The notes under the pieces are model-generated. The model saw only the letters and a program-made list of their open reading frames with translations. It was not told the origin of the DNA and did not search any database. A stretch of 59,881 nt of DNA, filler included. It is 5 parts of 5 records of this genome, joined end to end, with 100 filler letters (N's around TTAATTAATTAA, not from the genome) between each part and the next. Parts side by side here need not be neighbours in the genome. Positions count along the whole stretch, not along the records: positions 40,206 to 59,881 come from SRR20825006_678; 4 more parts are not named here. One strand, 5' to 3'. A program made the position numbers and the translations under genes. Shown piece by piece: positions 42,568-58,108 of the stretch. The first letter of the stretch is position 1; each line of letters opens with the position of its first letter.

Positions 42568-42895
42568 TATCAGTAATTTAGCGTAAAAATAATCTTTTCA
42601 GGTAAAAATAGAAGCCTTTTCTAAAAAAGCTGCCATATAATTATGGGGTTTAATCACGGTTTTCTTTTTGTATACTCCTAGTGCAGTCTTTATAGGTGAA
42701 TACTTTTTGGAAGTCTATTTATAATATCTGTTATATATGTAGTGATTTTCAATAAATCTATTTTTTAAATATTTATAAAAGATTTTTTAGGAGCATTTTT
42801 AAATGGCAGGTGTGCCTGCTGCACAAGTTAGAAAAAATTTGACGTAGGATTGCTATTAATTTTTTATTGGATTCATAACTTGAAGTATTCTACAG

Positions 42896-42930
42896 CTTTA
42901 AATTAACTTTAGAATTCCCAAATACATTTG
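42896..42930 (+). promoter_or_regulatory. Regulon promoter 1 (PAP2): tandem box plus -7 element
   Basis: CTTTAAA-ttaa-CTTTAGA-n9-TACATTTG. Confidence 0.8.
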
Positions 42931-42994
42931 ACATAAAATAAGAAAATCACAATAAACTATGTAATGTGATTTCAATGATATTATACTTATAAAA

Positions 42995-43774
42995 ATGTAT
43001 ATGACTCTTAGAAAGAAAGAATTAACTTTTGTAATGCTCCTCTTTTTGTTTGCTGGTTTTAGTCAAAAGAAAATAGACAAAGATTCCTTATCAGTTAAGG
43101 ATACATCGAATATCAATTTTCAATATAAATCACTTATTATCCCTTCTGCCCTTATTGGTTATGGTCTTTTGGCCACTGAAAGTCATACTTTGATTGATTT
43201 CAATGGAGAAATTAAAGAAGAAGTAAATGAACATATTGATAAGAAGTTTACTATTGACGATATCTCTCAGTATGCTCCAGCTGTGGCAGTGTATGGTATA
43301 AATTTAGCTGGAGTTAAGGGGAGAAATAATTTAAGGGATAGAACTATTATCTTGGGGACTGCCTATTTGATTATGGGATCGAGTGTTACTGGGTTAAAAG
43401 CTATTACTAGAATAGAGAGACCCGATGGGACTTCTCGAAATTCATTCCCTTCAGGCCATACTGCCACAGCGTTTATGGGTGCTGAATTTTTATATCAAGA
43501 GTATAAAGACGTTTCTATTTGGTATGGAATTGCGGGCTATGCTGTGGCAACAGGAACAGGTTTTTTTAGGATCTATAACGACAGACATTGGTTTAGTGAT
43601 GTTATAGCTGGGGCTGGGATAGGGATTCTTAGTACTAAAATCGCTTATTGGATTCATCCCTTTATTAATAAAAAAATATTTCTCAATCATACTAAAGAAA
43701 AAAGATTTGATAAAGCATTTGCTCCATTTTACAATGGTAGGGAGATGGGTGTGGGAGCTGTGATTCGATTTTAA
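42995..43774 (+). CDS. PAP2-family phosphatase with signal peptide
   Basis: K-x6-RP, SFPSGHT, RIYNDRHWFSD. Confidence 0.92.
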   Translation: MYMTLRKKELTFVMLLFLFAGFSQKKIDKDSLSVKDTSNINFQYKSLIIPSALIGYGLLATESHTLIDFNGEIKEEVNEHIDKKFTIDDISQYAPAVAVYGINLAGVKGRNNLRDRTIILGTAYLIMGSSVTGLKAITRIERPDGTSRNSFPSGHTATAFMGAEFLYQEYKDVSIWYGIAGYAVATGTGFFRIYNDRHWFSDVIAGAGIGILSTKIAYWIHPFINKKIFLNHTKEKRFDKAFAPFYNGREMGVGAVIRF

Positions 43775-43829
43775 CTAATAAACCCGTTATACTATTTCGT
43801 TATTTCTTGAGCTTCTTGAATAGTACGCT

Positions 43830-43864
43830 CTTTAAAATAACTTTAGAATTGAGAGATATATTTG
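43830..43864 (+). promoter_or_regulatory. Regulon promoter 2 (TolC-MFP-RND operon)
   Basis: CTTTAAA-ataa-CTTTAGA-n9-TATATTTG. Confidence 0.8.
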
Positions 43865-43885
43865 TTTATCCTATAAAGTAAATTT

Positions 43886-45166
43886 GTGCGAACTATTCTT
43901 TTTTATAGCTTTTTGTTTTTGTGTACTAGTTCTATAATAGGACAAGAACAAAAGAACCTGGAATATTTTATTAATCAAGCAAAGGAACATTTGCCAAGTG
44001 TAAAGGAAATTGAAAACCTCAAACGGATAGGGGAGTTACAATATGAGGTTATCAAGGCTCAAAACAATGCATTTCAGGTCAACGCTACAACAGATGTATT
44101 AGTAGCTCCTTATTTTAATAATGATGGAAAGTTTATTGACATTACTACAAATCCTTCTAATAATGCCTATGGTTATGATGTGGGCATTACAAATGGAGGA
44201 CTTTATTCTGCACAAGTTAATATTACCAAATCCTTATTTAATAAAAAATTGTTGGATGGACTCTTATTACAAAGTAAACTAACCAATGAAGGAGTATTAC
44301 TTTCATCGGAGGCCATAGTGCATACTTTAATTAAAAACATTACTGACACCTATATACTGGCTTATCAACAACAATTAAAAATCGAATTTGCCGATGAGAT
44401 TTTAGCGGTACTTAGACAAAGACTTGATGTGGTTGCGGTATTGGTTAAAAACGGAATTCTTTCCAGTAGTGACTATTTATTGTTAAAACTTGATTTAGAT
44501 ACAAAAAATATTGAACTTCAGCAATATAGTACAGCTTTCAATACTACTATAATTCAACTGTATTCCCTATGTGGAATTACAGCTGAAAAAACAGAAAGTT
44601 TGCTCCCTCCAATATTGGATTACAAAGAGAATCCAAAAACTTTCTTTTACCTGAAAAAATATCGAAATGACAGTTTACAACTCAAGTCTGATGAGCAGGT
44701 TTTATTGAATCGGTATAAACCAAATTTGTCATTTTATGGAAATACAGGTGTTAATGCGGTGGAACTTTCACATATTAATCATAAAATTGGAGCCAGTGTG
44801 GGTTTACATCTTGACATTCCTATCTATGATGGGAACAGGCGAAAGTATATGCTGGATCAATATAAATTGAAAAAGGAAAATTTAGAAAGGTATAAGAAAA
44901 ATGATGCCGTTAAGCTGAATAATGATCTAAAGGCATTGCATAATCAGGTAGACGCCTTACAGAATCAAATGATTCTGCTTAATAAACAATTGGATCAGTA
45001 TGCCCATATCCAAGAAATCTATAAAGAAAAGTTCGTGCAGGGACAGGTTTCTATTGTTGATTATTTAAATGTGATTCAGAATTATAAATCGAACATGTAT
45101 ACCAAATTACAAGCACAAACAAATTTATGGCTTTTAAAAAGTCAGTTTAACTATACAAATTGGTAA
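43886..45166 (+). CDS. TolC-family outer membrane efflux protein
   Basis: Signal peptide, helical repeats, LDIPIYDG motif; first gene of an RND operon. Confidence 0.82.
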   Translation: MRTILFYSFLFLCTSSIIGQEQKNLEYFINQAKEHLPSVKEIENLKRIGELQYEVIKAQNNAFQVNATTDVLVAPYFNNDGKFIDITTNPSNNAYGYDVGITNGGLYSAQVNITKSLFNKKLLDGLLLQSKLTNEGVLLSSEAIVHTLIKNITDTYILAYQQQLKIEFADEILAVLRQRLDVVAVLVKNGILSSSDYLLLKLDLDTKNIELQQYSTAFNTTIIQLYSLCGITAEKTESLLPPILDYKENPKTFFYLKKYRNDSLQLKSDEQVLLNRYKPNLSFYGNTGVNAVELSHINHKIGASVGLHLDIPIYDGNRRKYMLDQYKLKKENLERYKKNDAVKLNNDLKALHNQVDALQNQMILLNKQLDQYAHIQEIYKEKFVQGQVSIVDYLNVIQNYKSNMYTKLQAQTNLWLLKSQFNYTNW

Positions 45167-45168
45167 TT

Positions 45169-46092
45169 ATGAAGATAGATATCTCAAAATTCTATTTGGT
45201 ATTCATTTTTTTGATAATAGCGATTGGATGCAATACACCTCCTGTACCTCAAAATAAAGCTAAGACCTTTGTTAGGGTTCAAACAACAACAGTTAAAAAA
45301 GGTACTATTGATCAATATCGTTTATTTAATGGAGTTACCAAATATCAGCGAAAGGAAGCTATCCGAGCCAACGTAACTGGATATATTTCTACAATCAATT
45401 TTGAGGTTGGTAATTCTATTAATAAAGGGCAAGTTTTATGCTACATAAGAACAAAAGAACAACAAGCTCTTGGAGCTGCTGTAAAAATAGATAGTTCTCT
45501 GGCAAAACTTACCATTCCTATGGATATAAAAAGTAAGGCGACTGGGGTAGTTTCCATTATAAATTATAATGAGAATAGTTATGTTTCAGAAGGGGCTATT
45601 ATAGCCACTGTTACACAACCAAATTCGTTGACTATACAAGTAAGTATTCCTTTCGATCAAAGTAAAGAAATAAACAAGGGAATGCCTTGTGAGGTTATTT
45701 TAAAAGACACCACCATCAATGCTAAAATTAGTCAACAATTGCCCATAATTGAACCTTTGACCCAAAATCAACAATTTTTAATTGAAATGCCAAAGATTGT
45801 TTTACCAGAAAGCTTAAAAGTACAGATTCGAATGTTGGGAAAAATAGCTATGAATGCGATGGTACTTCCCAAATCTGCCATACAGACTAATGAACTGCAA
45901 AATAAGTTTTGGGTTATGAAAGTTTTAAATGATTCTTTAGCTGTAAAAATTAATGTAATTCCATTATTGGAAAATGATTCTTTGGTTCAAATAAAATCAA
46001 CTATGTTAGATTATAAAGATACTATTATTATTAAGGGAGCATATCAATTACAAGATACTACTGTAGTCCGTATTGAAAATCCAGCGCCATGA
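45169..46092 (+). CDS. RND periplasmic adaptor (MFP) lipoprotein (likely start ATG 45169)
   Basis: Lipobox IAIGC, lipoyl-like half motifs, VLPKSAI; between TolC and RND genes. Confidence 0.82.
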   Translation: MKIDISKFYLVFIFLIIAIGCNTPPVPQNKAKTFVRVQTTTVKKGTIDQYRLFNGVTKYQRKEAIRANVTGYISTINFEVGNSINKGQVLCYIRTKEQQALGAAVKIDSSLAKLTIPMDIKSKATGVVSIINYNENSYVSEGAIIATVTQPNSLTIQVSIPFDQSKEINKGMPCEVILKDTTINAKISQQLPIIEPLTQNQQFLIEMPKIVLPESLKVQIRMLGKIAMNAMVLPKSAIQTNELQNKFWVMKVLNDSLAVKINVIPLLENDSLVQIKSTMLDYKDTIIIKGAYQLQDTTVVRIENPAP

Positions 46093-49000
46093 ATGTTAAC
46101 TTCGTAAAATACAAATATCCTTTTTTGATTTTGGCAATACTCATCTTAGCTGGTGGGCTTTTTTCTTACCAAAAATTAAAAACAGGATTGTTTCCGGATA
46201 TCACTTTTCCAAAGATCAAAGTAATTGCTGATGCAGGACAACAACCAGTGGATAAAATGATGACAGCGGTTACCATTCCTCTAGAAAATGCATTGAGACG
46301 AACAGAAGGATTACAATATATTAAAAGTACTACCTCTCGTGGAAGTTGTGAGATTTCCGTATTTCTAGATTGGGATATGGATATTAATATAGCTAAATCT
46401 CAAATAGAATCCTATATTAATCAATCACAGGGAAGTATTCTCCCAAACACCAATTTTTTAGTAGAGAAAATGAACCCTTCCATATTGCCAGTTATAGGCT
46501 ATTCTTTGGAAGGAGATAATTACTCTTTGGTAGATTTAAAGAAAATAGCTAAATATCAAATAAAGCCCTATTTGGCTGCAAGTCCAGGAGTTGCAGATGT
46601 GGTGGTGGTTGGGGGGAAGGAAAAAGAGTATCAGGTGGTATTGGATCCTGTAAAGTTCAATAAGTTTGGAATTGGTATTTCTACAGTTAAGAATGCTATT
46701 GTCAATGCCAATATTCTTCAATCCAATGGGTATATTGCAGATCATAATCGTTTGTATCTAACACTTACTGATAATGCCATAACTCAAAGAACCGATTTGG
46801 AAAATATCCCAATTATTAATACTTCCAGTGGATTTATTCGCTTAAAGGATATTGCTTCTATTGATATTAAAGAGGTAAAAGAATATGTTAGAATTTTGGC
46901 CAATGGGAAAAATACACCTCTTATTGCCATAGTGAAACAATCAACAGCCAATTTAATGGAGGTTACCACTGAAACAGAGAAAAAAATTGATGAATTGGCA
47001 AGCATTTTGCCCAAAGGAATTTATCTAAAACCTTGCTATAAGCAAGCCGATTTTGTAGGTGAAAGCATTCGTAGTATAAAAGATGTCCTATGGATTGGAC
47101 TTTTATTAGCATTGTTTGTTGTTGTTTATTTTTTAAAATCAATTTCAGCAAGTTTATTGGTGCTGTTTTCCATTCCTATTTCTTTATCGCTTACCTTGAT
47201 TGGTTTAGATATTATGGGTTACTCGTTTAATATTATGACCCTTGGAGCTATTGCAGCTGCAATAGGCCTGATGATAGATGACGTGGTAATTGTGATAGAA
47301 CAAATCCATAAAATTAGAGAGGAAAATCTTGAAGAATCTATTGGAGGGATTGTTCACAGAAGTATTCAATATTTATTTCCAGCAATGATAGGGTCATCTC
47401 TTAGCACATTAGTTATATTCATCCCTTTTATACTTATGACAGGAGTAGCAGGGGCTTATTTCAAAGTAATGGCCTTTACAATGGTTATTGCGCTCATTGC
47501 TTCCTTTGTCGTTTCGTGGTTGGTGTTACCCGTTTTAGCGATTTTTTTATCCAAGGGATCTCATAAAAAGAATATAAAGAGACAAAGTACCAAATGGATA
47601 CACTTTATTTTAAGGCGTCCAATTATTGGAGTTTTATTTGCTTTTTTATGTGTTTTAATTCTACTGGCTGTTCCTTCTAGATTAACCACGGGTTTTTTAC
47701 CCGAAATGGACGAGGGGAGTATTGTGTTGGATTTTAATAGTCCACCTGGTACAACCTTGGAGGAAACCAACCGAATGCTTTCAGAGGTTAATCATATATT
47801 GAACAATCAAGAAGAGGTGGAGGCGTACTCTGCTCGTATGGGAACTCAAATGGGCTTTTTTATTACGGAACCAAACCGTGGGGATTACCTCATAAAATTA
47901 AAAGATTCTAAAAATAAAACTACAACAGCCGTAGCCGATGAAATAAGACAAAAATTAGAGATGTCAATTCCGCAACTTACGGTAGATTTTGGCCAGGTTA
48001 TTGGTGATATGTTGGGAGATTTAATGAGTTCTGTACAACCAATAGAAATAAAAGTATTTGGATCGGATGTGAAAACACTTCAAATACTTTCAAAACAAAT
48101 TGCTGCTGAGATAAAACAGGTGGATGGAACTGTTGATGTAAATGATGGAGTAATTGTTGCCGGACCTACGCTCTCAATAATACCAAATACCTATACACTT
48201 TCTCAATTGGGACTTACAGCAAATGATTTACAATTACAATTACAAACCCAAATAGAAGGGATGGTAGTGAGTACTATATATGAAAACGAACAAATAGTGC
48301 CTATTCGTTTGATATATTCCAATATTAAAAATTTAGACATTGATAATATCAGGAATACTAAAATAATATTACCAAATGGATCATCAATTGCTATTGATAA
48401 AGTAGCTTCCATAACTTTAGGAAAAGGAGTGGCTGAAATTAATAGAGAAAACCAAAAATCCATGGGGGTAATTACTGCACGATTGGATCAGCGTGATCTA
48501 GGATCTGCCGTAGTGGAAATCAAGAATCTAATAACCGAAAAAATCAGTATTCCAAGTGGATATCACATAGCTTATGGGGGAGCTTATAAAGAACAACAAC
48601 AGGCATTTCAGGAATTGTTATTAATTCTAATTAGTGCTTTTTTATTAGTCTTTATGATTATTCTCTGTTTGTTTCGAAAGCTTATTATTGCTATTATGAT
48701 ACTCATTATAGGAGTGCTCGGGGTTGCAGGTTGTTTGTTAAGTCTTTTTATTACAGGAACCCCATTGAATGTTGGAAGTTATACAGGGATTATCATGATT
48801 GTTGGGATTTTAGGGGAGAACAGCATCTTTACCTATTTACAGTTTTTAGAGACAGATACAAAGTGGTCTGTTTTAAAAAGGATCGAATATGCCATAGCTG
48901 AAAGGTTGCGACCAAAGCTAATGACAACTACCGCCGCAATGATGGCTTTGATTCCTTTGGCACTTGGTATCGGAACGGGTGCACAATTACATCAACCATT

Positions 49001-49097
49001 AGCTATTGCGGTTATTGGAGGGCTACTATTTGCTTTGCCACTTTTATTAGTGGTATTGCCTACAATGCTTGAATACATTGAAAAAAAGAGAAAGTGA
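46089..49097 (+). CDS. RND efflux permease (AcrB/CusA superfamily)
   Basis: LFPDITFP, GLMIDD (TM4), FLPEMDEG, RLRPKLMT, QPLAIAVIGG; 1002 aa. Confidence 0.93.
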   Translation: MNVNFVKYKYPFLILAILILAGGLFSYQKLKTGLFPDITFPKIKVIADAGQQPVDKMMTAVTIPLENALRRTEGLQYIKSTTSRGSCEISVFLDWDMDINIAKSQIESYINQSQGSILPNTNFLVEKMNPSILPVIGYSLEGDNYSLVDLKKIAKYQIKPYLAASPGVADVVVVGGKEKEYQVVLDPVKFNKFGIGISTVKNAIVNANILQSNGYIADHNRLYLTLTDNAITQRTDLENIPIINTSSGFIRLKDIASIDIKEVKEYVRILANGKNTPLIAIVKQSTANLMEVTTETEKKIDELASILPKGIYLKPCYKQADFVGESIRSIKDVLWIGLLLALFVVVYFLKSISASLLVLFSIPISLSLTLIGLDIMGYSFNIMTLGAIAAAIGLMIDDVVIVIEQIHKIREENLEESIGGIVHRSIQYLFPAMIGSSLSTLVIFIPFILMTGVAGAYFKVMAFTMVIALIASFVVSWLVLPVLAIFLSKGSHKKNIKRQSTKWIHFILRRPIIGVLFAFLCVLILLAVPSRLTTGFLPEMDEGSIVLDFNSPPGTTLEETNRMLSEVNHILNNQEEVEAYSARMGTQMGFFITEPNRGDYLIKLKDSKNKTTTAVADEIRQKLEMSIPQLTVDFGQVIGDMLGDLMSSVQPIEIKVFGSDVKTLQILSKQIAAEIKQVDGTVDVNDGVIVAGPTLSIIPNTYTLSQLGLTANDLQLQLQTQIEGMVVSTIYENEQIVPIRLIYSNIKNLDIDNIRNTKIILPNGSSIAIDKVASITLGKGVAEINRENQKSMGVITARLDQRDLGSAVVEIKNLITEKISIPSGYHIAYGGAYKEQQQAFQELLLILISAFLLVFMIILCLFRKLIIAIMILIIGVLGVAGCLLSLFITGTPLNVGSYTGIIMIVGILGENSIFTYLQFLETDTKWSVLKRIEYAIAERLRPKLMTTTAAMMALIPLALGIGTGAQLHQPLAIAVIGGLLFALPLLLVVLPTMLEYIEKKRK

Positions 49098-49143
49098 TAA
49101 AAGGAATATTGATTTTTAAATTGAAAGAACTAACTTTAATACT

Positions 49144-49821
49144 ATGAAAATATTAATTGCAGAGGATGAATTTTCTTTACAGCAGTCTATTGCCATTTAT
49201 CTTGAAAAGCAAGGGAATGTGTGCGAAGTGGCTTCAGATTTTAATGAAGCGTCTTATAAGGTGTCACTATATGATTATGATATTGTTATACTGGATCTCA
49301 ATTTGTTGACTGGGAGTGGGATTGATATCTTGAAGCAGTTGAAGAAGGAACAGGATGCTAATACCGCTGTTATTATTATATCTGCAAATAATTCTTTGGA
49401 TGATAAATTAAAAGGTTTGGATCTCGGAGCAGATGATTATTTAACAAAACCATTTCATTTAGCGGAGCTTAATTCCCGAGTAAAGGCCATCTTAAGAAGG
49501 CAAAAGTTTGGAGGAGGTACAATTGTTGTTTTTAACGAGATTAAAATAGATACTGATGGACATTTGGTTACAGTGGGAGAAAAAGTGATTGTACTCACTA
49601 AAAAAGAATATGATTTGTTACTTTTTTTTGTAACCAATAAAAATAGGGTACTATCCAAGGAAATTATAGCAGAACACCTCTGGGGAGACAACAGTGATTT
49701 AATTGACAATTTTGATTTTATTTATGTGCATGTCAATAATTTACGAAAAAAACTCACGAAAGAAGGAGCAAAATATATTAAAACAGCCTATGGAAGTGGG
49801 TACAAATTCATAGATGATTAA
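49144..49821 (+). CDS. OmpR/PhoB-family response regulator
   Basis: ILIAED, ILDLNL phospho-Asp, GADDYLTKPF, winged helix VHVNNLRKKL...TAYGSGY. Confidence 0.95.
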   Translation: MKILIAEDEFSLQQSIAIYLEKQGNVCEVASDFNEASYKVSLYDYDIVILDLNLLTGSGIDILKQLKKEQDANTAVIIISANNSLDDKLKGLDLGADDYLTKPFHLAELNSRVKAILRRQKFGGGTIVVFNEIKIDTDGHLVTVGEKVIVLTKKEYDLLLFFVTNKNRVLSKEIIAEHLWGDNSDLIDNFDFIYVHVNNLRKKLTKEGAKYIKTAYGSGYKFIDD

Positions 49822-51078
49822 ATGAATAAGAATAGGAAAAAGGTAGGTCTCATACAAAAGACTTCCAATATTTTTATAATGGTAAGCTTACTGTTAATGT
49901 CTTTAAGTTCAATTGCGCTTTATTTTTATTTACGAAATATTTTGGAAGTGGAAATTGAGGAGCAGTTGTATTCTACAGCTGCTAGGATTGAAAGTTCACT
50001 GGAAGCGGGTAAAAATCCATATTCATTGCCGCCAGTAGTAGAAGTAGCTACTTCCAATAAATCTCTTCCTGATATTTTGAAAGATACCTTAATTTATGAC
50101 CCTTCACAAGATGAGATAGAACTTTTTAGGGAACTTTCAAGTTTTAAAAAAATCAATAATATTAATTATAAAATCACAGTGCGTGATCTTGTAGTGGAAT
50201 CTGAAAATATATTGATGGCCATAATTATTTCCTATTTATTAATTATTATAACGGTATTTGTAGTGTTGTATTACTTTAACAAAGTAGGAAATTCCTATTT
50301 GTGGAAACCATTTTTTAATACGTTGGAACAAATAAAAGAATTTTCTCTATCCACTAAAGAACCAGTAGCACTGTCAATCTCTAATATTAGAGAGTTTAGT
50401 GAACTGAATACCCAAGTAAAAATACTTACTGATAAAGTAAGGGGAGATTATAACAATCTAAAGCAATTTACAGAGGATGTTTCCCATGAATTACAAACTC
50501 CCTTGGCCATCATGCAGGTTAAAATAGAGAGTGTTATAAATGATGCACCATTAAGCAACCAACAATATGATCAGTTGACATCCATTCAAAAAGATATTAA
50601 GCGAGTAACTCAAATGAATAAGGGATTGACACTGCTTACAAAAATAGAGAACAATCAATTTATAAACCCAAAACAAGTTTCATTGACTTCTATCGTAGAG
50701 GGGAATATTGCTAATTTTAAAGAGATATTCCAACAAGATATTCAGTTCGTAAATGAAAATGAGCTTTTGGTGACTATGGATTACCATTTGGCAGAAATTC
50801 TATGTAATAATTTAATTTCCAATGCTATTAAGCATCACATAGGTAGTGGGGATATAGTTATTGAAATTACTAAAGAGCATTTATCTGTATGTAATAAGGG
50901 GGAGAAACCAATTTTACATGCAGATCGGATATTCAATCGTTTTTATAAAGAAAATGAGAGTGTGAAATCCACTGGTTTAGGGCTTGCCATTGCAAAGAAG
51001 ATTTGCGATATGTATAATTTTAAGCTTACCTATACATTCGAAAAAGGATTCCATATATTTTTAGTTCAATTTTCATAA
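49822..51078 (+). CDS. Sensor histidine kinase (2 TM, short periplasmic domain)
   Basis: SHELQTPL H-box, NLISNAIKH N-box, IFNRFY, TGLGLAI. Confidence 0.93.
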   Translation: MNKNRKKVGLIQKTSNIFIMVSLLLMSLSSIALYFYLRNILEVEIEEQLYSTAARIESSLEAGKNPYSLPPVVEVATSNKSLPDILKDTLIYDPSQDEIELFRELSSFKKINNINYKITVRDLVVESENILMAIIISYLLIIITVFVVLYYFNKVGNSYLWKPFFNTLEQIKEFSLSTKEPVALSISNIREFSELNTQVKILTDKVRGDYNNLKQFTEDVSHELQTPLAIMQVKIESVINDAPLSNQQYDQLTSIQKDIKRVTQMNKGLTLLTKIENNQFINPKQVSLTSIVEGNIANFKEIFQQDIQFVNENELLVTMDYHLAEILCNNLISNAIKHHIGSGDIVIEITKEHLSVCNKGEKPILHADRIFNRFYKENESVKSTGLGLAIAKKICDMYNFKLTYTFEKGFHIFLVQFS

Positions 51079-51119
51079 ATAACTAAGTGTTAACCACTAA
51101 GTAATAATTTAATTTTCCA

Positions 51120-51154
51120 CTTTAAACCATCTTTAAATTTGCTTTTTAAGTTTA
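51120..51154 (+). promoter_or_regulatory. Regulon promoter 3 (OM barrel)
   Basis: CTTTAAA-ccat-CTTTAAA-n9-TAAGTTTA. Confidence 0.75.
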
Positions 51155-51171
51155 TCCAAAATTCAGACATA

Positions 51172-53595
51172 ATGGATAAAATAAAGATACGATTGTTGTC
51201 TTCCTTTTTGGCAATATTTGGTGTTTGCGAAGCGCAGGAAAAAATAACAATTTCTGGAAAAGTAAAAGATAATCAAACCAATGAAGTATTACCTTTTACT
51301 TCTGTAACAGTAAATAAAGAAACTTCTGAGACGTTTGTAGTAGGAACAATTACAGATGAAGCGGGTAATTTTCAGATAGAAGGATTGGCATTGGGAAATT
51401 ATAGTATAAACATCTCTTTTGTAGGCTATGAGCAATCGCAACGGATGATTTATGCAAGCGGAATAAATACCACTTTTAATCTAGGAGTAATTCCGTTGAA
51501 TCCCACATCCGAAACTTTGGAAGCGGTGGAGGTTTCAGTAAAAAGAGAAGTGACCAATGCTGCATTAAGTAAAAAAAGTTTTTCACTTACCGATAATATT
51601 GCTAATTCTGGTGGCTCGGTATTGGAAGCTATGAAATCAATGCCCGGGGTTACTTTTGATCAAGATGGAAAAGTGTTGTTGAGAGGGAGTGATAAGGTTA
51701 CTGTGCTTATAGATGGAAAACAGTCCAGTTTAACTGGGTTTGGAAACCAAAAAGGATTGGGAAATATTCCAGTTTCAAATATTGATAGGATAGAGATCAT
51801 TAATAATCCTTCGGCTAAGTATGATGCCAATGGCTTGGCGGGAATTATTAATATCATCTATAAAGATGAGCAAGAAAGAGGATTAAATGGAACTGTAGGA
51901 CTTTCATCTGGGATAGGGGCTTTCAGTAAGCGAAAGGAGGATCTCCCGATCGATCTGGGTTCTTATTATATGAATCCGAAATTAATTCCAAGCATAGATT
52001 TTAACTATAGAACTAAAAAGTTCAATTACTTTTTTCAGTCAGAATTTATCATTCAAGAAGCGCTTCCCAATAATGAGTATACCACTAGATTCTATAATGA
52101 TGGAAGGAAGATTACATCCCAAGTTCCTGAGAACAGAAAACAGTTCAGGGTTATCTTAAAAGGAGGTATTGATTGGAATTTTAATGAGAATAATAGGTTT
52201 ACTTTTTCAGGGATGTACGATAGAGAAAAACATATAGATACCTCTCAAGTAGCTTTTATCAACCTAGCCTCCAGTCAAAGAGAACGCTATTATAACTGGA
52301 AAGAAGAAGAGATAACAAGTAACATTAATGTGGTAGCAGATTATGAACATTCATTTTCGCAGCCTGGGCAAACCTTTAATGCAAACCTACAATATACAAG
52401 AGGTTTGGAGGATGAAAGTTATTTTTTGAATGATAGTTCTTCCATTCGGTTGGGGAGGGATGTTACGCATATAAAAGCGGTAGAACATACCCTGGGAGTG
52501 TCAGCTAATTACGCACAGGCACTAGCAGCTGGGAAGTTGGAGGTGGGCACCAAAGTTAGAGTTCGCCGTCTTCCTGTGGATTATATTGTTGAAAGAGGAA
52601 ATAATTCAATTATTTATGAAGGGCTCGGGGATTATTCCGATTGGGGAGAGAATCTCTTTGCAGGGTATGCAAACTTTGTATATGAAAGAGCACATTTTGA
52701 AATAGAAGCAGGTTTAAGAGCTGAGTATACCGAGGTTTTTTATACTCTCGACCCTACAAATATCTACTACAATTCCAACGACGATTACGACTATTTTAAA
52801 TTTTTTCCAAGTGTACGATATACTCAAAAGCTGAACCAAAATAACAATATATCCCTTTTTTATAATCGTCGAATTGATCGTCCTGGAGAAGCAGAACTCA
52901 GGATTTTTCCAAAGTATGATGACCCTGAACTCTTAAAAGTAGGGAATCCCTATTTACGTCCTCAATACACAGAATCTATAGAATTGGCACATAAATTTTC
53001 ATGGACCACAGGTTCTTTATTTTCCGCTTTATATCACAAAAAGATAACCGATGAATATCGAAGAATTTATAGTATTGATGATTCGAATCCAACGTATGAT
53101 ATTATCAATAGAATATATCAAAATACAGGAAAGACGTTGTCAAGCGGAATAGAAATACTTTTTAATCAGGATATTTCCTCTTATTGGGAATTGGGTATGA
53201 GTGCAAATTTTTTTAGAAATAAGGTAGCAGCTTATACTGGAACTGTCTTGTTTCCCTATGAAAGATCCTTTTATATAGAAGAATCTAAGGCAAATGCTAC
53301 TATTTTAAAACTAACCAATGAATTTCAGCTGCCTTGGGAGTTACAATTTCAAGTGGTAGGGCTTTATTATTCACCAAAAAATATACCGCAAGGAAAGGAG
53401 CTTTCTCGTTCTTCGGTAGATATTGGAGTGAAGAAAGTCGTATGGAATAAAAAAGGAGAGGTTGCTTTTTCAATGAGTGATATTTTTAATACTTATGGCA
53501 TTCGACAAGAAATAAACGAAAGCGATTTTACTGCCTTATATCAGAATTATTATGAGACACAGATTGCGAGAATATCTTTTAAATATAAGTTCTAA
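51172..53595 (+). CDS. TonB-dependent-receptor-like outer membrane beta-barrel (likely start ATG 51172)
   Basis: Signal peptide, carboxypeptidase-regulatory-like domain, plug (IDRIEIINNPSAKYDA.G.AGIINI), GNPYLRP, terminal Phe. Confidence 0.88.
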   Translation: MDKIKIRLLSSFLAIFGVCEAQEKITISGKVKDNQTNEVLPFTSVTVNKETSETFVVGTITDEAGNFQIEGLALGNYSINISFVGYEQSQRMIYASGINTTFNLGVIPLNPTSETLEAVEVSVKREVTNAALSKKSFSLTDNIANSGGSVLEAMKSMPGVTFDQDGKVLLRGSDKVTVLIDGKQSSLTGFGNQKGLGNIPVSNIDRIEIINNPSAKYDANGLAGIINIIYKDEQERGLNGTVGLSSGIGAFSKRKEDLPIDLGSYYMNPKLIPSIDFNYRTKKFNYFFQSEFIIQEALPNNEYTTRFYNDGRKITSQVPENRKQFRVILKGGIDWNFNENNRFTFSGMYDREKHIDTSQVAFINLASSQRERYYNWKEEEITSNINVVADYEHSFSQPGQTFNANLQYTRGLEDESYFLNDSSSIRLGRDVTHIKAVEHTLGVSANYAQALAAGKLEVGTKVRVRRLPVDYIVERGNNSIIYEGLGDYSDWGENLFAGYANFVYERAHFEIEAGLRAEYTEVFYTLDPTNIYYNSNDDYDYFKFFPSVRYTQKLNQNNNISLFYNRRIDRPGEAELRIFPKYDDPELLKVGNPYLRPQYTESIELAHKFSWTTGSLFSALYHKKITDEYRRIYSIDDSNPTYDIINRIYQNTGKTLSSGIEILFNQDISSYWELGMSANFFRNKVAAYTGTVLFPYERSFYIEESKANATILKLTNEFQLPWELQFQVVGLYYSPKNIPQGKELSRSSVDIGVKKVVWNKKGEVAFSMSDIFNTYGIRQEINESDFTALYQNYYETQIARISFKYKF

Positions 53596-53598
53596 CCA

Positions 53599-53633
53599 CT
53601 TAAACATTCCTTTAGAATTAGTTCCTAATTTTA
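53599..53633 (+). promoter_or_regulatory. Regulon promoter 4 (PepSY-like)
   Basis: CTTAAAC-attc-CTTTAGA-n9-TAATTTTA. Confidence 0.7.
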
Positions 53634-53661
53634 ATATTATTAACTAAAAATAAAACTTATA

Positions 53662-54114
53662 ATGAAAGTATTAAAGTTATTATTTATGGTGGTCTCAGTA
53701 ACAGGGTTAAGTGCCTTTGCCATTAAAAAAGAGGTGCCAGAAAAAGTAGAAGAAGCATTTAATAAAAAATTCCCTGAAGCTAAGGCCGTACATTGGGATC
53801 AGGAATCTGATCATGAATGGGAAGCAGCATTTAAATATGGTGGACATCGGTATTCAGCCAATTTCATGGATGATGGTACGTGGAAAGAAACAGAACATGA
53901 CATTAAGTTGAAGCAATTACCAGACAGGGTTCGAATTTCCTTATTTCAAAAGTTCCAAAATTATAAAATTAAAGAGCAAGAAATTTCGGAAACAACTAAT
54001 GGTATTCTATACGAATGTGAAATTAAAAAAGGAAAATCCAAATTGGAAGTAGCTTTTGATGAAAAAGGAGAATTAAAGAAAAAAGAAGTGTTAACAGGAG
54101 AAGATGAAGATTAG
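53662..54114 (+). CDS. PepSY-like (BLIP-like) periplasmic protein
   Basis: Signal peptide; VPEKVEEAFNKKFP.A..V.W and LPDRV tandem repeats; F...G motifs. Confidence 0.85.
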   Translation: MKVLKLLFMVVSVTGLSAFAIKKEVPEKVEEAFNKKFPEAKAVHWDQESDHEWEAAFKYGGHRYSANFMDDGTWKETEHDIKLKQLPDRVRISLFQKFQNYKIKEQEISETTNGILYECEIKKGKSKLEVAFDEKGELKKKEVLTGEDED

Positions 54115-54134
54115 GTTTTGATTGTTTCGTATTG

Positions 54135-54170
54135 ATGGGATTTGAATTTATTTTCAAATCCCATTTTTTT
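54135..54170 (+). terminator. Intrinsic terminator
   Basis: ATGGGATTTGAA-loop-TTCAAATCCCAT-TTTTTT. Confidence 0.85.
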
Positions 54171-54194
54171 GCAATAATCGGAATGAAATACAAA

Positions 54195-54229
54195 CTTTAA
54201 TTTTCCTTTAGATTCTGGTACTAATTTTA
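54195..54229 (+). promoter_or_regulatory. Regulon promoter 5 (LTA synthase-DAG kinase)
   Basis: CTTTAAT-tttc-CTTTAGA-n9-TAATTTTA. Confidence 0.75.
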
Positions 54230-54256
54230 CCGCTTAAATTTAGATGCAGTAATTTT

Positions 54257-56236
54257 ATGTGGTATTGTCCCCCTAAACGTTTTGAATTATTGAAGGTTTT
54301 TGTTCTTTTTTTTATAAGCCTTTCATTTGTTGTAAGATCAATTTTTTTATTGTGGAATTTAGGTGAGGTGGATGTACATTTTATTGATATAATACGAATT
54401 TTTATAACAGGTTTGTTTTATGACTTGGGAACAATTTCGTTTTTTACCCTTCCGTATTTGCTGTATTTAATGATTATTCCTAATAAATGGATTGGGAGTT
54501 TATTTGATCGAATAGCTACCTATACAGGTTTTACCATAGGAATATTGATGCTCTATTTTTCATTTTTTGCAGAAATTACATTCTGGGATGAATTCCATAG
54601 AAGATTTAATTTTATAGCAGTAGATTATCTAATCTATACCTATGAGGTAGTTCAAAATATAAATGAGTCCTATCCCTTACCGATTTTAATTTCTAGCATC
54701 TTGTTATTGGCTATTGGTACCTTATATTTAATATATAAATGCAAGGTTTTTAAACATATATTTCTGACGCAAATAACATTTAAAAAGAAAGTATTATTTT
54801 CTTTACCTTGGATTGTAATAGCCATTTGTTTTAGCATGTTTGTTTCCAATGAAGGTGCTGATTGGTCTAGAAACCGGTACAATAATGAACTTTCTAAGGC
54901 GGGGATTTATTCCTTTTTTGCCGCCTTTAGAAATAATGCACTTTCTTACACGGAATTTTACAAAACCCTTACAGAAAAAGAATCTCATGCTTTGGTTAGC
55001 AAACAATACGAAGCTTCTGGAAAATTGATTAATCCGAAAAAAAATCCAATATATAGAAATATTTCACGGCATGATTCACTTCAAAGTGAAATAACCCCCA
55101 ATGTTATATTTATTTGTGTGGAGAGTTTAAGTGCAAAATTCTTAGGAGTATTTGGCAATGAAAAGGGGCTTACTCCGAACTTGGATAAGCTTTCTAAGGA
55201 TGGGGTTTTGTTTTCAAATCTATATGCTACAGGAACCAGGACGGTTCGTGGAATGGAAGCCATAACCTTATCGATTCCACCAACACCTGGACGAAGTATT
55301 GTGAAAAGAGAACGGAATACGGGAATGTTTACTATTGGTGAAGTGTTTAAAAATAAAGGGTATACCCGTAACTTCTATTATGGGGGAGATGGCTATTTCG
55401 ATAATATGAATACGTATTTTAGTGGTAATGGTTTTAATATTATAGATAGAGGAAGAAATTTTTTGATTGGAGATGAGATAGAAACCATTAGGACGAATAT
55501 TAATGATGAAGAAGTAAGTTTTGAAAATGCTTGGGGTGTATGCGATGAGGATCTTTTTAGTAAAGTCTTACAACAAGCAGATTTGCAGACTGTTAATGGA
55601 ACACCTTTTTTTGACTTTATCATGACTACTTCTAATCATAAACCTTATACCTATCCTAATGGAAAAATAGACATCCCGTCGGGGAGTGGTCGCGATGGAG
55701 CCGTTAAATATACAGATTATGCGATTGGAAAGTTTATTGAAAAAGCTAAAACAAAGCCGTGGTTTAAAAATACTGTATTTGTGATTATGAGTGATCATTG
55801 TGCCAGTAGTGCTGGAAGGTGGGAATTAGATGTTAAGAATTATCATATTCCTGCTATTATCTACAACCTGCCTAATAAACACTCAGAAAAGGTTGAGAAA
55901 CTCTGTTCTCAAATCGATCTTTTCCCAACACTATTCGGTTATTTTAATTGGGAGTATAGTTCAAACTTCTTTGGGCAGGATATCACAAATAAAGCTTCAG
56001 ATAGGGAAAGGGCTTTTATTGGAAATTATAGAAAACTTGGACTTTTAAAAGGAAATGATGTAATGATCCTTGGAGACCAAAAAACTGCTAATTTTTATAC
56101 ATGGGATGATAAAACCAATGAACTGACGAAACAAACATTATCCAATGACTATTTAAATCAGACCATATCTTTTTATCAAACTGCCGATGATTTATATACC
56201 AGCGGTAAGCTCACTTTAAAAAGTTTAAACAAATGA
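54257..56236 (+). CDS. LTA synthase/phosphoglycerol transferase-family protein (sulfatase fold)
   Basis: N-terminal TM helices; VESLS, GTRTVRGMEA (catalytic Thr), SNHKPY, SDH. Confidence 0.88.
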   Translation: MWYCPPKRFELLKVFVLFFISLSFVVRSIFLLWNLGEVDVHFIDIIRIFITGLFYDLGTISFFTLPYLLYLMIIPNKWIGSLFDRIATYTGFTIGILMLYFSFFAEITFWDEFHRRFNFIAVDYLIYTYEVVQNINESYPLPILISSILLLAIGTLYLIYKCKVFKHIFLTQITFKKKVLFSLPWIVIAICFSMFVSNEGADWSRNRYNNELSKAGIYSFFAAFRNNALSYTEFYKTLTEKESHALVSKQYEASGKLINPKKNPIYRNISRHDSLQSEITPNVIFICVESLSAKFLGVFGNEKGLTPNLDKLSKDGVLFSNLYATGTRTVRGMEAITLSIPPTPGRSIVKRERNTGMFTIGEVFKNKGYTRNFYYGGDGYFDNMNTYFSGNGFNIIDRGRNFLIGDEIETIRTNINDEEVSFENAWGVCDEDLFSKVLQQADLQTVNGTPFFDFIMTTSNHKPYTYPNGKIDIPSGSGRDGAVKYTDYAIGKFIEKAKTKPWFKNTVFVIMSDHCASSAGRWELDVKNYHIPAIIYNLPNKHSEKVEKLCSQIDLFPTLFGYFNWEYSSNFFGQDITNKASDRERAFIGNYRKLGLLKGNDVMILGDQKTANFYTWDDKTNELTKQTLSNDYLNQTISFYQTADDLYTSGKLTLKSLNK

Positions 56237-57114
56237 AAAAAATTCATTTCATTGTAAATCCAATTGCAGGAAAAGGGAATAAACATATTGATGAAACGCT
56301 TTTGAGCAGCTATTTTTCAAAAGACCATTATGAGGTGAGAGTTAAGAGTACAAAGTATAAAGGTGAGGCTGTAGTGCTGACCCAAGAATCTGTTAGCCAA
56401 GGTGCCACTATTATTGTAGCATGTGGTGGTGATGGAACCGTTAATGAGGTAGCTTCTGTCTTAGTGAATTCTCAATGCATCTTAGGGATTGTACCCATTG
56501 GTTCTGGAAATGGATTGGCTTCTCATTTGAAAATACCTAAAGATATTGAAAAGGCACTTTTACTGATTCAGCATGAGATAACAACCAGAATTGATGTAGG
56601 AAGCTGCAATGGCACTTATTTTTTTAGTAATACAGGCTTTGGATTTGATGCAAAAGTAATACGAAGGTATGAAGGTTTTACTGGGCGTACCCTTAATAGT
56701 TATTTAAAAGCTTGTGTTGTTACTTTTTTTAATAATAAGAATGAAGATTCTCTTGTAGTAACCATTAACGGAACAAAAAAGTATAAAGACCCATTTTTAA
56801 TTTTTGCATCAAACTCCAATGAATTGGGCTATAATTTTAGTCTTACGCCAAAAGCATCACTACAAGATGGTCTTTTGGATGTTCTTATAATCCCAAAGAT
56901 GCAGAAGCTACAGTTAGTATGGTTTGGGGTAATGTTAATTTTTAAAAGACATCTAGGTTTAAATGGAGTGGTTAGTTATCAAACAAATAAGCTAGATATA
57001 ATAAGAAATGAAGGAAGGTATTTTGAATCTCAAATGGATGGTGAATATAAAACTTTAGAAGAAATAGAGGTATCTATTGAATTATTGAAAGACTCAATTA
57101 TAGTAATCAATTAA
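56233..57114 (+). CDS. Diacylglycerol/lipid kinase (YegS/DgkB family)
   Basis: NPIAG, GGDGTVNEV, GSGNGLA, DGE; overlaps the LTA synthase stop. Confidence 0.92.
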   Translation: MKKIHFIVNPIAGKGNKHIDETLLSSYFSKDHYEVRVKSTKYKGEAVVLTQESVSQGATIIVACGGDGTVNEVASVLVNSQCILGIVPIGSGNGLASHLKIPKDIEKALLLIQHEITTRIDVGSCNGTYFFSNTGFGFDAKVIRRYEGFTGRTLNSYLKACVVTFFNNKNEDSLVVTINGTKKYKDPFLIFASNSNELGYNFSLTPKASLQDGLLDVLIIPKMQKLQLVWFGVMLIFKRHLGLNGVVSYQTNKLDIIRNEGRYFESQMDGEYKTLEEIEVSIELLKDSIIVIN

Positions 57115-57126
57115 TATTCACTTAAA

Positions 57127-57161
57127 CTTTAGAATGTCTTTAGAATCAAGATTTACTTTTA
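57127..57161 (+). promoter_or_regulatory. Regulon promoter 6 (second PAP2)
   Basis: CTTTAGA-atgt-CTTTAGA-n9-TACTTTTA. Confidence 0.8.
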
Positions 57162-57227
57162 GTAGCTTAATCCTAAGAAATACTCATGCCTATACTATTA
57201 AAACTACATAACTGATAGCGTAAATTT

Positions 57228-57812
57228 ATGTGTTCTCTTTTTAATTCCCCTACCAAAACCTTCCATTTTAAAATTCAGAGGTGCTTTATATTTTTTGTTT
57301 GTCTTATTTGCTTTTGGAATTTGAGATTGTATTCACAAGAAAAAGCGATTGAAATCTCAGGAGATATTCTTTTGTATGCTATGCCTACTATTTCATTAGG
57401 ATCTACCCTTGTCATTGGTGATAAACAAGGAACTTGGCAGTTTCTAAAAGGTTTTGCCGTAAACGAAGCCATGACTTTTGGGTTAAAACTAGCCATTAGT
57501 AAGCCACGACCCAATGAAGCTAATAATAATTCTTTTCCATCAGGGCATACCTCCACGACATTTCAGAGTGCGGCTTTTATTCAAAAACGATATGGCTGGA
57601 AATATGGAATACCTGCTTATGCATTAGCTGGGTTCACTGGATTTAGTAGGATTTACGCCGATCAGCATGATATACTGGATGTTTTAGCGGGAGCAGTCAT
57701 AGGTGTTGGAAGTAGTTATTTATTTACGACTGAATATCAAAAGAAACATATGGAAGTTACATTTACTTCCAATCGAGATAACATATTACTGGGATTTAAT
57801 TATAAGTTTTAA
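57228..57812 (+). CDS. PAP2-family phosphatase (LpxE-like)
   Basis: KLAISKPRP, SFPSGHT, SRIYADQHDILD; ends YKF. Confidence 0.88.
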   Translation: MCSLFNSPTKTFHFKIQRCFIFFVCLICFWNLRLYSQEKAIEISGDILLYAMPTISLGSTLVIGDKQGTWQFLKGFAVNEAMTFGLKLAISKPRPNEANNNSFPSGHTSTTFQSAAFIQKRYGWKYGIPAYALAGFTGFSRIYADQHDILDVLAGAVIGVGSSYLFTTEYQKKHMEVTFTSNRDNILLGFNYKF

Positions 57813-57963
57813 CACCAATTTAGCCATATAAATAAGGTAGAATATTTAAAACCAATACTATATATTTAACATATTAGTTTAATATAAATTCATCCAATCT
57901 TATGATGTGGGTCACTTATTCCTTTTTAGCATCAAATTATACATGACAACATATTAAATATAT

Positions 57964-58047
57964 CTATCCAATATTTCCGAAAGTTAAACTCGCAAAATAT
58001 TTCTCGGAAAAGGGACGGCATAAAGCCGTTCCGTTGTCTCTTTTTAT
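57964..58047 (+). repeat. 84-bp structured direct repeat, copy 2 (5' part of a long hairpin)
   Basis: 79/84 identical to 42227-42310. Confidence 0.92.
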
Positions 58048-58108
58048 TCCGTTTCCTTTCCACTCCAAAATTTTGCCTTCCGTTTGGGTTATGCTCAAAT
58101 ATTGTTTA

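Follow-up and report, generated by a model that had tools for sequence, protein, structure and literature searches.

Gene content of the cassette

The window, that is, the whole stretch of DNA analysed here (59,881 nucleotides (nt), filler included), contains at positions 42995-57812 a block of eleven genes, hereafter the cassette, which are all on the plus strand and follow each other at spacings of 0-142 nt or with small overlaps, according to open reading frame (ORF) calls and searches with Pfam and NCBIfam. The host of the cassette is a marine flavobacterium, and the genes, listed below together with a terminator-like hairpin, make it a candidate system for remodelling the cell envelope.

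42995-43774, plus strand: PAP2 phosphatase a (259 amino acids (aa); Pfam PAP2, 60.6 bits)
43886-45166, plus strand: TolC-like outer membrane factor (426 aa; Pfam OEP, 82 bits)
45160-46092, plus strand: periplasmic adaptor (310 aa; HlyD_3, HlyD_D23; TIGR01730, 76 bits)
46089-49097, plus strand: RND permease (1002 aa; ACR_tran, 648.7 bits)
49144-49821, plus strand: OmpR/PhoB-type response regulator (RR) (225 aa; Response_reg and Trans_reg_C)
49822-51078, plus strand: sensor histidine kinase (HK) (418 aa; HisKA and HATPase_c)
51139-53595, plus strand: outer-membrane (OM) barrel resembling TonB-dependent receptors (OMP_b-brl_3, 255 bits; Plug; CarboxypepD_reg; likely start ATG at 51172)
53662-54114, plus strand: PepSY-like periplasmic protein (150 aa, signal-like N-terminus; Pfam PepSY_like (PF11396), 45 bits)
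54134-54165, plus strand: terminator-like hairpin 3' of the PepSY-like gene (13-pair stem, then a T run)
54257-56236, plus strand: predicted LtaS/OpgB-like phospho-head-group transferase (659 aa; multiple transmembrane (TM) segments and Sulfatase, 159 bits)
56233-57114, plus strand: DgkB/YegS/BmrU-type soluble lipid kinase (293 aa; DAGK_cat, 102 bits; YegS_C, 46 bits)
57228-57812, plus strand: PAP2 phosphatase b (194 aa; Pfam PAP2, 49.1 bits)

The transferase displays about five N-terminal hydrophobic segments within residues 8-198 and a Sulfatase domain at residues 281-563, which is the LtaS/OpgB-type architecture (COG1368), i.e. a multi-helix membrane domain followed by an alkaline-phosphatase/sulfatase-type domain. 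In a sequence search, its nearest solved relative is 3LXQ (237 bits), which is the uncharacterised Vibrio protein VP1736, followed by LtaS (2W8D) and LtaP (4UOP). It does not group with EptA/MCR, as no such chain was found among 38 sequence matches (E up to 0.01) or in a fold search down to rank 50, and Pfam detects only Sulfatase and a weak Phosphodiest on the protein. The catalytic residues of LtaS are the metal ligands Glu and Asp-His and a Thr nucleophile. In the cassette protein, E289, D513 and H514 align with the LESL and GDH motifs of B. subtilis LtaS and are invariant in 9/9 homologues; T329, which is also invariant, is one column away from the LtaS Thr, in a part of the alignment that has low confidence. 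Scores remain below the orthologue cut-offs for LtaS (36.4 bits vs 970) and for two OpgB-type models (69.2 vs 572 and 64.1 vs 574). The structural model predicts helices followed by an alpha/beta domain, a fold that appears to match 3LXQ (TM-score 0.85), full-length PbgA (in complex with lipopolysaccharide (LPS)), LtaP and LtaS.

The kinase exceeds the cut-off of TIGR00147 (YegS/Rv2252/BmrU), with 125.5 bits vs 118.65, has no hydrophobic segment and scores 65.8 bits against DgkB (2QV7), but it falls short of the named equivalogs for diacylglycerol kinase (94.8 bits vs 385 and 93.5 vs 342). It is solely from this coupled kinase gene that we infer a glycerophospholipid donor, and release of diacylglycerol, for the transferase. 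PAP2 proteins are defined by the motifs KX6RP, PSGH and SRX5HX3D, all of which both phosphatases carry. The best solved relative of each is LpxE (6EBU; E 0.07 for PAP2a and 4.9e-5 for PAP2b), although neither qualifies as LpxE, with 28 (a) and 46.5 (b) bits against the NCBIfam cut-off of 177. The C-terminus of either PAP2 protein is a short, strand-like segment whose last residue is Phe (…AVIRF and …FNYKF), and PAP2a lacks a strongly hydrophobic segment at the threshold used.

The HK belongs to the PorY-family subfamily NF052314 (407.7 bits vs a cut-off of 350), which is to be read as a subfamily label only, the partner here being of OmpR type; the original PorY pairs with a different kind of partner. 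Hydrophobic segments at residues 14-37 and 123-157 of the HK bracket an acidic loop of ~85 aa. The RR reaches no named equivalog at its cut-off, and the two proteins do not score as orthologues of PmrAB or PhoPQ (157.7/330 bits for PmrA, 126.1/336 for PhoP, 58.6/314 for PmrB and 45/497 for PhoQ). Homologues of the PepSY-like protein adjoin the same kind of sensor pair at seven other loci (L110, L020, L045, L075, L081, L082 and L093; here and below, G designates comparison genomes, of which G001 is the nearest, C their contigs and L surveyed loci). Complex prediction for the HK loop (38-124) with the mature PepSY-like protein (23-150) returned 0.00 in both runs, with alignments unused, which has no bearing either way on whether the two bind.

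A common promoter box and a recurrent gene core

In the intergenic regions of the cassette an 18-bp box recurs, in which two direct repeats of 7 bp are 11 bp apart. The pattern CTTWAR-N5-CTTTARA has six matches in the window, all on the plus strand and all in intergenic regions of the cassette, where they precede PAP2a, TolC, the OM barrel, the PepSY-like gene, the transferase and PAP2b. At 6/6 sites, TAnnTTT[GA] follows exactly 9 nt 3' of the box, an octamer that occurs 39 times in total in the 19,676 nt of the contig that holds the cassette; TAnnTTTG is the -7 element of Bacteroidota promoters. The six predicted promoters are as follows.

42896-42930, plus strand: P1, 18-bp box, 9-nt spacer, TACATTTG; kept in G009 with a diverged spacer
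43830-43864, plus strand: P2, box, 9 nt, TATATTTG
51120-51154, plus strand: P3, box, 9 nt, TAAGTTTA
53599-53633, plus strand: P4, box, 9 nt, TAATTTTA
54195-54229, plus strand: P5, box, 9 nt, TAATTTTA
57127-57161, plus strand: P6, box, 9 nt, TACTTTTA

This arrangement is what is expected of a regulon of the OmpR/PhoB class, the RR having receiver and winged-helix domains and the tandem 7-bp repeats, to which it is predicted to bind, being one helical turn apart and adjoining the core promoter. Since there is no box upstream of the RR gene in the window, RR and HK are probably transcribed from the promoter of the TolC gene. Immediately upstream of the regulator gene, a box is present in G004 and Maribacter. 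A scan for the sigma-70 consensus (74 sites vs 88.6 expected) is uninformative for this organism.

Box and geometry are retained at 6/6 sites in G009 despite diverged 9-nt spacers, at 2/2 sites in G004 and 2/3 in Maribacter under a strict test, and both are conserved in Arenibacter as well. Across 1.78 Mb of loci, all 28 exact matches to the box (28/28) are within clusters of this kind. A looser version, TTYWRAA-N4-TTYWRAA, has 76 exact matches in 1.41 Mb, ten of which are within 150 nt upstream of a transferase gene; when one mismatch is allowed, 22/526 matches are found at most 150 nt upstream of this gene, in 21/78 loci (the 78 being those with a recognised transferase ORF), including loci from Chryseobacterium, Pedobacter, Flavipsychrobacter and Ferruginibacter. 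As far as sequence can tell, the six boxes mark one regulon.

With its tandem repeat of 18 bp adjoining the core promoter, the cassette box has the layout of a Pho box, and this raises the prospect that a PhoB-like RR induces enzymes stripping phosphate-bearing head groups from membrane lipids, i.e. lipid turnover upon phosphate starvation. The RR does score 161.5 bits against PhoB and 156 against a Bacteroidota PhoB model, and PAP2 and alkaline-phosphatase-superfamily enzymes release phosphate. Nevertheless, the cut-offs of the two PhoB models (296 and 270 bits) are not attained, the HK matches the PorY-family model and not PhoR (78.6 bits vs 334), re-phosphorylating diacylglycerol runs contrary to phosphate saving, and neither a phosphate transporter nor a synthase for phosphorus-free lipids was seen nearby, which makes this scenario very improbable.

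Close orthologues of the transferase (at least 49% identity, near full length) are present in 7/41 related genomes, and in 3/10 of the nearest genus. Five arrangements are informative.

G009, another species: all 11 genes, with 83-96% amino-acid identity; block 87% identical at nt level
G001:C2: block 99.9% identical at nt level from mid-TolC on; an IS21 interrupts TolC at residue 281
G004: RR-HK-transferase-kinase only
G001:C1: second transferase-kinase pair
G031 (L020/L029): RR-HK-transferase-DUF347-PepSY-like-TolC-adaptor-RND-PAP2-PAP2-EamA

The second pair in G001:C1 (L016, G001:C1:268000-287500, at 8197-18197; 63% and 55% identity) adjoins an IS21, a truncated OEP gene and genes for a CusB-like adaptor, VIT1, HD, thioredoxin-like and ApbE proteins, and has no exact box. 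A wider neighbourhood survey with one genome per species returned at least 590 related loci, of which 80 were kept and 53 are flanked on either side by 6 kb or more. Neighbours were detected by phmmer with few queries, and the following counts are therefore lower bounds, with TolC, PepSY-like and PAP2 genes probably underestimated.

RR and HK within 6 kb of the transferase: 24/53 loci, 21 of them upstream on the same strand
PAP2 near the transferase: 25/53 loci
Kinase near the transferase: 13/53 loci, 12 of them within 100 nt downstream
OM barrel near the transferase: 13/53 loci
RND within 10 kb of the transferase: 12/53 loci
None of RR+HK, PAP2 or kinase within 6 kb: 16/53 loci

These counts delineate a conserved core consisting of the sensor pair, (barrel), transferase, (kinase) and PAP2, to which the pump is an optional addition, and this core recurs in many genera, core and box both being found in other Bacteroidota. 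The original prediction fares well on several counts: the co-oriented block of 11 genes is as it described, at the coordinates and with the domains it gave; the overlap of the LTA-synthase-like and kinase genes is real (4 nt, 54257-56236 vs 56233-57114) and belongs to a tight, conserved pair (kinase at most 100 nt downstream in 12/53 loci); the single co-regulated unit that it proposed agrees with six promoters of identical geometry and an OmpR/PhoB-type direct-repeat box; and the survey of Bacteroidota neighbourhoods that it suggested as a check reveals co-occurrence across many genera (RR+HK in 24/53 loci, PAP2 in 25/53), and the distribution is patchy (close orthologues of the transferase in 7/41 related genomes), as it expected.

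Could the genes nonetheless be adjacent only, without forming a functional system? Gene content near the transferase does vary among genomes, and it is without RR+HK, PAP2 and kinase neighbours in 16/53 loci. However, mere adjacency is hardly credible in the face of six promoters with a common box and geometry, which are conserved in G009, G004, Maribacter and Arenibacter, and of G031, a distant genome that holds the same gene set in a different order.

Another way of reading the cassette starts from its pump, which has the composition of a tripartite RND system (OEP, HlyD_3 and ACR_tran in overlapping genes) and reaches no named-pump NCBIfam cut-off. The cassette would then be chiefly a heavy-metal resistance unit, with a Czc/Cus-like pump, a metal-sensing two-component system and lipid enzymes as secondary passengers. 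Several observations are in line with this: the RND permease scores 462.8 bits against a CusA/CzcA model, and HK and RR score 86.8 and 141.9 bits against heavy-metal sensor and regulator models; in G004, RR-HK-transferase-kinase lie back to back with genes for a CzcA-like RND, a DUF3347 protein and an HMA-domain P-type ATPase; the second transferase-kinase pair of G001:C1 adjoins a CusB-like adaptor and a VIT1 protein; and a P-type ATPase gene lies beyond the insertion site in G001. Yet all the heavy-metal scores are sub-cut-off and a multidrug model does equally well (467.5 bits), and the pump is missing at most loci that keep the core (RND at most 10 kb away in 12/53). In addition, a DD pair in TM4 characterises amphiphile exporters and the pattern DFG...DGA...VEN metal exporters, and TM4 of the cassette permease (GLMIDDVVIVIEQ) has the DD pair and not the metal-exporter pattern. 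We predict a pump of the amphiphile type and consider a metal resistance unit improbable. Metal is a signal for PmrAB or ColRS, and by analogy it could be the cassette's signal.

Probable role in lipid A modification

A clue to the acceptor of the transferase is provided by a second box cluster in G001, L110 (G001:C1:2043000-2062000), with boxes at 5752, 7821, 8674, 10065 and 11806 and the gene order RR-HK-PepSY-like-ArnC-like-LAB_N-ArnT-like-LmtA-like-HD-PAP2-TolC-adaptor-RND. Its RR, HK (also PorY-family) and PepSY-like protein are 70%, 49% and 46% identical to those of the cassette. Among the enzymes encoded between them and the pump are an ArnC-like GT2 (95 bits), an ArnT-like GT-C protein (NCBIfam ArnT model, 177 bits; PDB 5EZM, 97 bits) and an LmtA-like methyltransferase (202 bits to TIGR04571, the lipid A 1-phosphate methyltransferase, cut-off 325). 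The cluster is rare, its ArnT-like gene being matched in only 2/41 related genomes (E up to 1e-30). Elsewhere, transferase genes themselves adjoin ArnT/GT2/LAB_N genes in L038 and L040 and LmtA-like genes in L049, L054, L056 and L096. L110 ties the regulator family to lipid A chemistry and, by association, favours lipid A or LPS as the acceptor. Two such two-component clusters, from genomes that are unrelated, directly adjoin a fluoride riboswitch accompanied by CLC and DUF190 genes (L110, 5286-5346, minus strand; L020, 9761-9826, plus strand), the riboswitch operon of L110 also including pyrophosphatase, enolase and PAP2 genes; this adjacency is possibly due to chance, or possibly a hint to the signal or to a shared stress.

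We regard it as fairly probable that the cassette is a self-contained envelope-remodelling regulon under its own two-component system, with diacylglycerol recycling, which likely acts on lipid A/LPS. It would operate as follows: (i) the ~85-aa acidic periplasmic loop of the HK would sense an envelope signal, (ii) the HK would phosphorylate the OmpR/PhoB-type RR, (iii) the RR would bind the 18-bp box, whose sequence and geometry are directly readable, and drive six units (PAP2a; TolC-adaptor-RND and RR-HK; OM barrel; PepSY-like; transferase and kinase; PAP2b), the inclusion of RR-HK in the TolC unit amounting to autoregulation, (iv) the transferase would pass a head group, either glycerol phosphate or phosphoethanolamine, from a membrane glycerophospholipid to a periplasmically exposed acceptor, most likely lipid A or LPS, leaving diacylglycerol, (v) the translationally coupled DgkB-type kinase would return diacylglycerol to phosphatidic acid and (vi) the PAP2 enzymes would strip phosphate from the same or a related lipid substrate.

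Several points weigh against this scheme. The case for lipid A is drawn from an association, that with a paralogous cluster, the transferase has a structural model of no more than moderate confidence (mean pLDDT 66.7), and no cassette protein reaches the curated cut-off of LpxE, LtaS, OpgB, PmrA/B or PhoP/Q. The kinase family includes enzymes with other lipid substrates, so diacylglycerol is a presumed substrate, and 16/53 loci have the transferase without sensor pair, PAP2 or kinase nearby. As for the box, shuffled windows contain on average 0.15 matches and 0/100 shuffles reach six, but the pattern was composed from the six sites themselves, which makes the window count alone circular, and its support therefore comes from the independent loci and not from the shuffles. 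Likewise, genome-wide totals are close to those of the reversed pattern (14 vs 10 in G001, 14 vs 11 in G004), and therefore only the clustering of matches is informative: in G001, the cassette accounts for four of the 14, and another five are located within 6.1 kb of each other on the second contig.

The regulon and its diacylglycerol recycling could also stand with an acceptor other than lipid A, such as periplasmic glucans (in an OpgB-like manner), a glycerol-phosphate polymer resembling lipoteichoic acid (LTA), which the transferase would build or prime, or another glycolipid, capsule or protein. The best named NCBIfam matches of the transferase are indeed OpgB-type phosphoglycerol transferases (69 and 64 bits) and LtaS (36 bits), LtaS and LtaP are among its solved relatives, and in 16/53 loci it has no RR+HK, PAP2 or kinase neighbours. 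These scores, though, are far under the cut-offs of 572, 574 and 970 bits, no gene for glucan synthesis or a glycolipid anchor was seen in the annotated neighbourhoods, and ArnT/ArnC/LmtA-like enzymes and LpxE-like PAP2 are associated with the regulator family, with its box and with several transferase loci, all of which leads us to view a different acceptor as unlikely.

Comparison with known systems clarifies what a regulon acting on lipid A would share with them. In PmrAB/PhoPQ of Salmonella and E. coli (eptA/pmrC, arnBCADTEF), an OmpR-family RR and a membrane HK induce lipid head-group enzymes, as predicted for the cassette, and the likeness extends to a direct-repeat site and autoregulation, with the G001 paralogous cluster even having ArnC/ArnT-like genes. 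The cassette differs in that its transferase is LtaS-like and not EptA-like, its RR and HK are below the PmrA/B and PhoP/Q cut-offs, and the whole regulon forms one cassette, in which genes for the RND pump, the OM barrel and the PepSY-like protein are included. Because the same regulator family and box preside over an ArnC/ArnT/LmtA-like cluster in G001, the analogy with PmrAB/PhoPQ regulons drawn by the original prediction is a reasonable one, and its broader idea of a remodelling system finds computational support in the co-regulation, the transferase-kinase coupling, the PmrAB-like logic and the accessory status of the block. On balance its interpretation is supported in part, the lipid A acceptor and the surface-charge effect that it proposed standing as predictions.

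The nearest published analogue is provided by eptA environments in Vibrio, i.e. rstAB-dgkA-eptA, cytB-pepSY-eptA-dgkA and PAP2-dgkA-eptA, described along with mcr-1-pap2 and with some copies being mobile; in this Vibrio study, the colistin resistance that eptA mediates depended on dgkA (PMC12064563). Like the cassette, these environments associate a sensor pair, a head-group transferase, a diacylglycerol kinase, PAP2 and a PepSY-type protein, and rstAB-dgkA-eptA and PAP2-dgkA-eptA come closest, although they are made of unrelated enzymes: the cassette has an LtaS-like transferase devoid of the EptA N-terminal domain, a soluble DAGK_cat kinase instead of membrane DgkA, and PepSY_like PF11396. 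In LpxE-EptA pairs of Helicobacter pylori and Capnocytophaga canimorsus (PMC4730577), a PAP2 lipid A 1-phosphatase is found beside a head-group transferase, one of these pairs being from a Flavobacteriaceae, which offers a 'dephosphorylate, then decorate' model. Here, by contrast, the PAP2 scores are those given above (28/46.5 bits vs 177), the transferase is of another family and there is a dedicated sensor pair.

The transferase-kinase pairing has its own precedents. In LtaS with DgkB (Gram-positive bacteria) and OpgB with DgkA (E. coli), the transferase leaves diacylglycerol, which the kinase recycles. The cassette would have the same pairing, and its transferase resembles LtaS in its predicted fold and in the aligned metal ligands (for LtaS enzymology, see PMC3089822), but its host has an outer membrane and is not known to make LTA, and the scores are far below the LtaS/OpgB cut-offs. 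PbgA/YejM (6XLP, 6V8Q) is likewise predicted to be similar, with a five-helix membrane domain and an alkaline-phosphatase-type periplasmic domain, 6XLP (an LPS complex) ranking third in the fold search; identity is only 14%, however, with a moderate model, and the transferase has residues that align with the metal ligands of LtaS.

A more far-reaching proposal, which we put forward tentatively and find somewhat doubtful when taken as a whole, is that the VP1736 clade of LtaS-type enzymes constitutes a second family of lipid A/LPS phospho-head-group transferases, independent of EptA and two-component-induced in Bacteroidota, with their own DgkB-type salvage, LpxE-like phosphatases and Pho-box-like promoters, carried in marine flavobacteria by movable modules in which one promoter design would serve swappable LtaS or ArnT/LmtA sets and an amphiphile pump and confer polymyxin-type resistance. 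To our knowledge, the inducible modification of lipid A has been worked out well in Proteobacteria but barely in Bacteroidota, for which only constitutive phosphatases and one LpxE-EptA pair are described. The literature that was searched, with most subscription journals outside its coverage, includes no report of such a two-component regulon in Bacteroidota and no paper on this transferase clade or on 3LXQ/VP1736. The cassette is a circuit amenable to testing, for which an operator and six promoters are predicted, together with a sensor pair and two alternative enzyme modules under the same control. Were the LtaS-like enzyme to act on lipid A/LPS, this would (i) add a new enzyme family to the routes of cationic-peptide resistance, (ii) explain what is done by an uncharacterised but widespread clade, which has at least 590 related loci and includes the solved protein 3LXQ, and (iii) imply that the transferase-kinase-PAP2-sensor logic of eptA/mcr contexts arose twice from unrelated parts. 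Should the enzyme target something else, the cassette would still be a clean case of a compact regulon able to move between genomes.

Insertion site and genomic context

The window contains 352 N, as four N44-TTAATTAATTAA-N44 linkers (8891-8990, 16597-16696, 24422-24521 and 40106-40205), and therefore consists of five concatenated contigs (A-E), the cassette being wholly inside contig E (40206-59881, 19,676 nt, zero N). It follows that genes left of 40206 are not true neighbours of the cassette, and several genes that may have been taken for island context are on other contigs. The features of contig E that surround the cassette are as follows.

40206-40444, no strand: left flank X, 94% identical to G001:C2:510268-510506
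40445-59854, no strand: insertion segment of 19.4 kb, absent at the matching G001 site
40502-42049, minus strand: Fic-domain protein (515 aa; Pfam Fic, E 5.4e-10), not beside the cassette in G001:C2
42221-42310, plus strand: repeat D1 copy a (90 nt), 93% identical to 57958-58047
42349-42567, minus strand: truncated Schlafen/AlbA_2 fragment (72 aa; Pfam SLFN_AlbA_2, profile positions 1-69/118)
57958-58047, plus strand: repeat D1 copy b, upstream of the 173-aa ORF and DUF932, as in G001:C1 at 3668 kb
58034-58555, plus strand: 173-aa ORF (likely start 58148), no Pfam or NCBIfam match, 95% identical copy in G001:C1
58632-59429, plus strand: DUF932 protein (265 aa; Pfam DUF932, 57 bits), a gene of the type found in integrative and conjugative elements (ICE)
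59604-59873, plus strand: truncated DUF6266 gene (89 aa; profile positions 2-75/198), cut by the right end of the insertion
59855-59881, no strand: right flank Y, 27/27 identical to G001:C2:510508-510534

X and Y are contiguous in G001 (...GGAATATTA|TTAGCGAAC...) and 19.4 kb apart in the window, and G001 therefore represents the empty site. D1 direct repeats bracket the cassette, and other D1 copies, as well as the module formed by repeat, ORF and DUF932, are found 16-25 kb from TraG in G001 and G009, where a DUF932 homologue (62%) is ~17 kb from the TraG gene (G009:C15). D1 is no known RNA family, an Rfam search on contig E (E up to 1) having returned three matches far below their gathering scores.

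DNA shared between the window and G009 is limited to 42892-42941 and 43118-57821, i.e. from the first box to just beyond the last stop, and the G009 flanks of this shared unit, which include IS3 copies, are unrelated to those of the window. The cassette is 87% identical to G009 DNA vs 72-77% for the chromosomal background, and median protein identity is 86.8% vs 81.3%; for G004, it is the background that is closer (85.9%) and the module that is more distant (65-87%). IS21 and IS3 copies flank the cassette in G001 and G009. On this comparative basis, the block is best described as accessory DNA that has apparently moved, residing here in a decayed fragment and in different contexts in different species. 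The proposal that it travels as island cargo is upheld in a weak sense only: there is a 19.4-kb insertion with patchy distribution, present in the window and absent from a defined site in G001:C2, as expected of an ICE or a transposon, but it is a decayed fragment that lacks mobility genes of its own and defined ends, with no integrase, transposase or transfer gene among the scanned ORFs of 40445-59854 and with the TraG matches of G001 and G009 distant from the cassette. No tRNA was detected by a scan of the whole window, hence no tRNA-linked island end, and the GC content of the cassette (31-35%) is not distinct from that of adjacent low-GC contigs.

The assembly itself looks mixed, with more than one organism represented, judging from its contigs. 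Contig A (1-8890, ~57% GC) carries proteobacteria-like housekeeping genes (proC, yggS, yggT, metX/W and an rdgB-like gene) and lacks any counterpart in the three flavobacterial genomes that are nearest, contig B (8991-16596) shows only 70-77% identity to these genomes, and contigs C-E are 99% identical to G001. Short elements of ~60-85 nt at contig ends (40031-40106, 40207-40291) recur at dozens of G001 sites with 83-96% identity and probably belong to a dispersed family of repeats at which short-read assemblies break.

In G001:C2, ~38 kb are enclosed by two directly oriented IS21 copies (IstA/IstB; L013 2360-4750 and L024 2926-6268). This interval contains the truncated cassette, SSB and RadC genes and a locus for fructan utilisation; a DDE transposase disrupts the second IS21 copy, which ends ~1 nt before the starting sequence of contig E. 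In public sequencing data, at least half of the sampled words of 51000-58000 are present in 13 runs, among them seawater metagenomes and runs that bear various organism names; the 19 matching entries come from 12 studies. No empty insertion site was seen among the run contigs compared (X4, X2 and X10), which have the same context and are near-identical, X4, a possible source, covering all of the compared DNA in one contig with 0 differences. Lastly, a ~80-nt element at 42807-42888, 5' of the first box, is also found in G001 (91-93%), in G004 and at several small G009 contig ends (76-78%), and runs X2, X4 and X8 each have a contig that diverges from the stretch at 42888.

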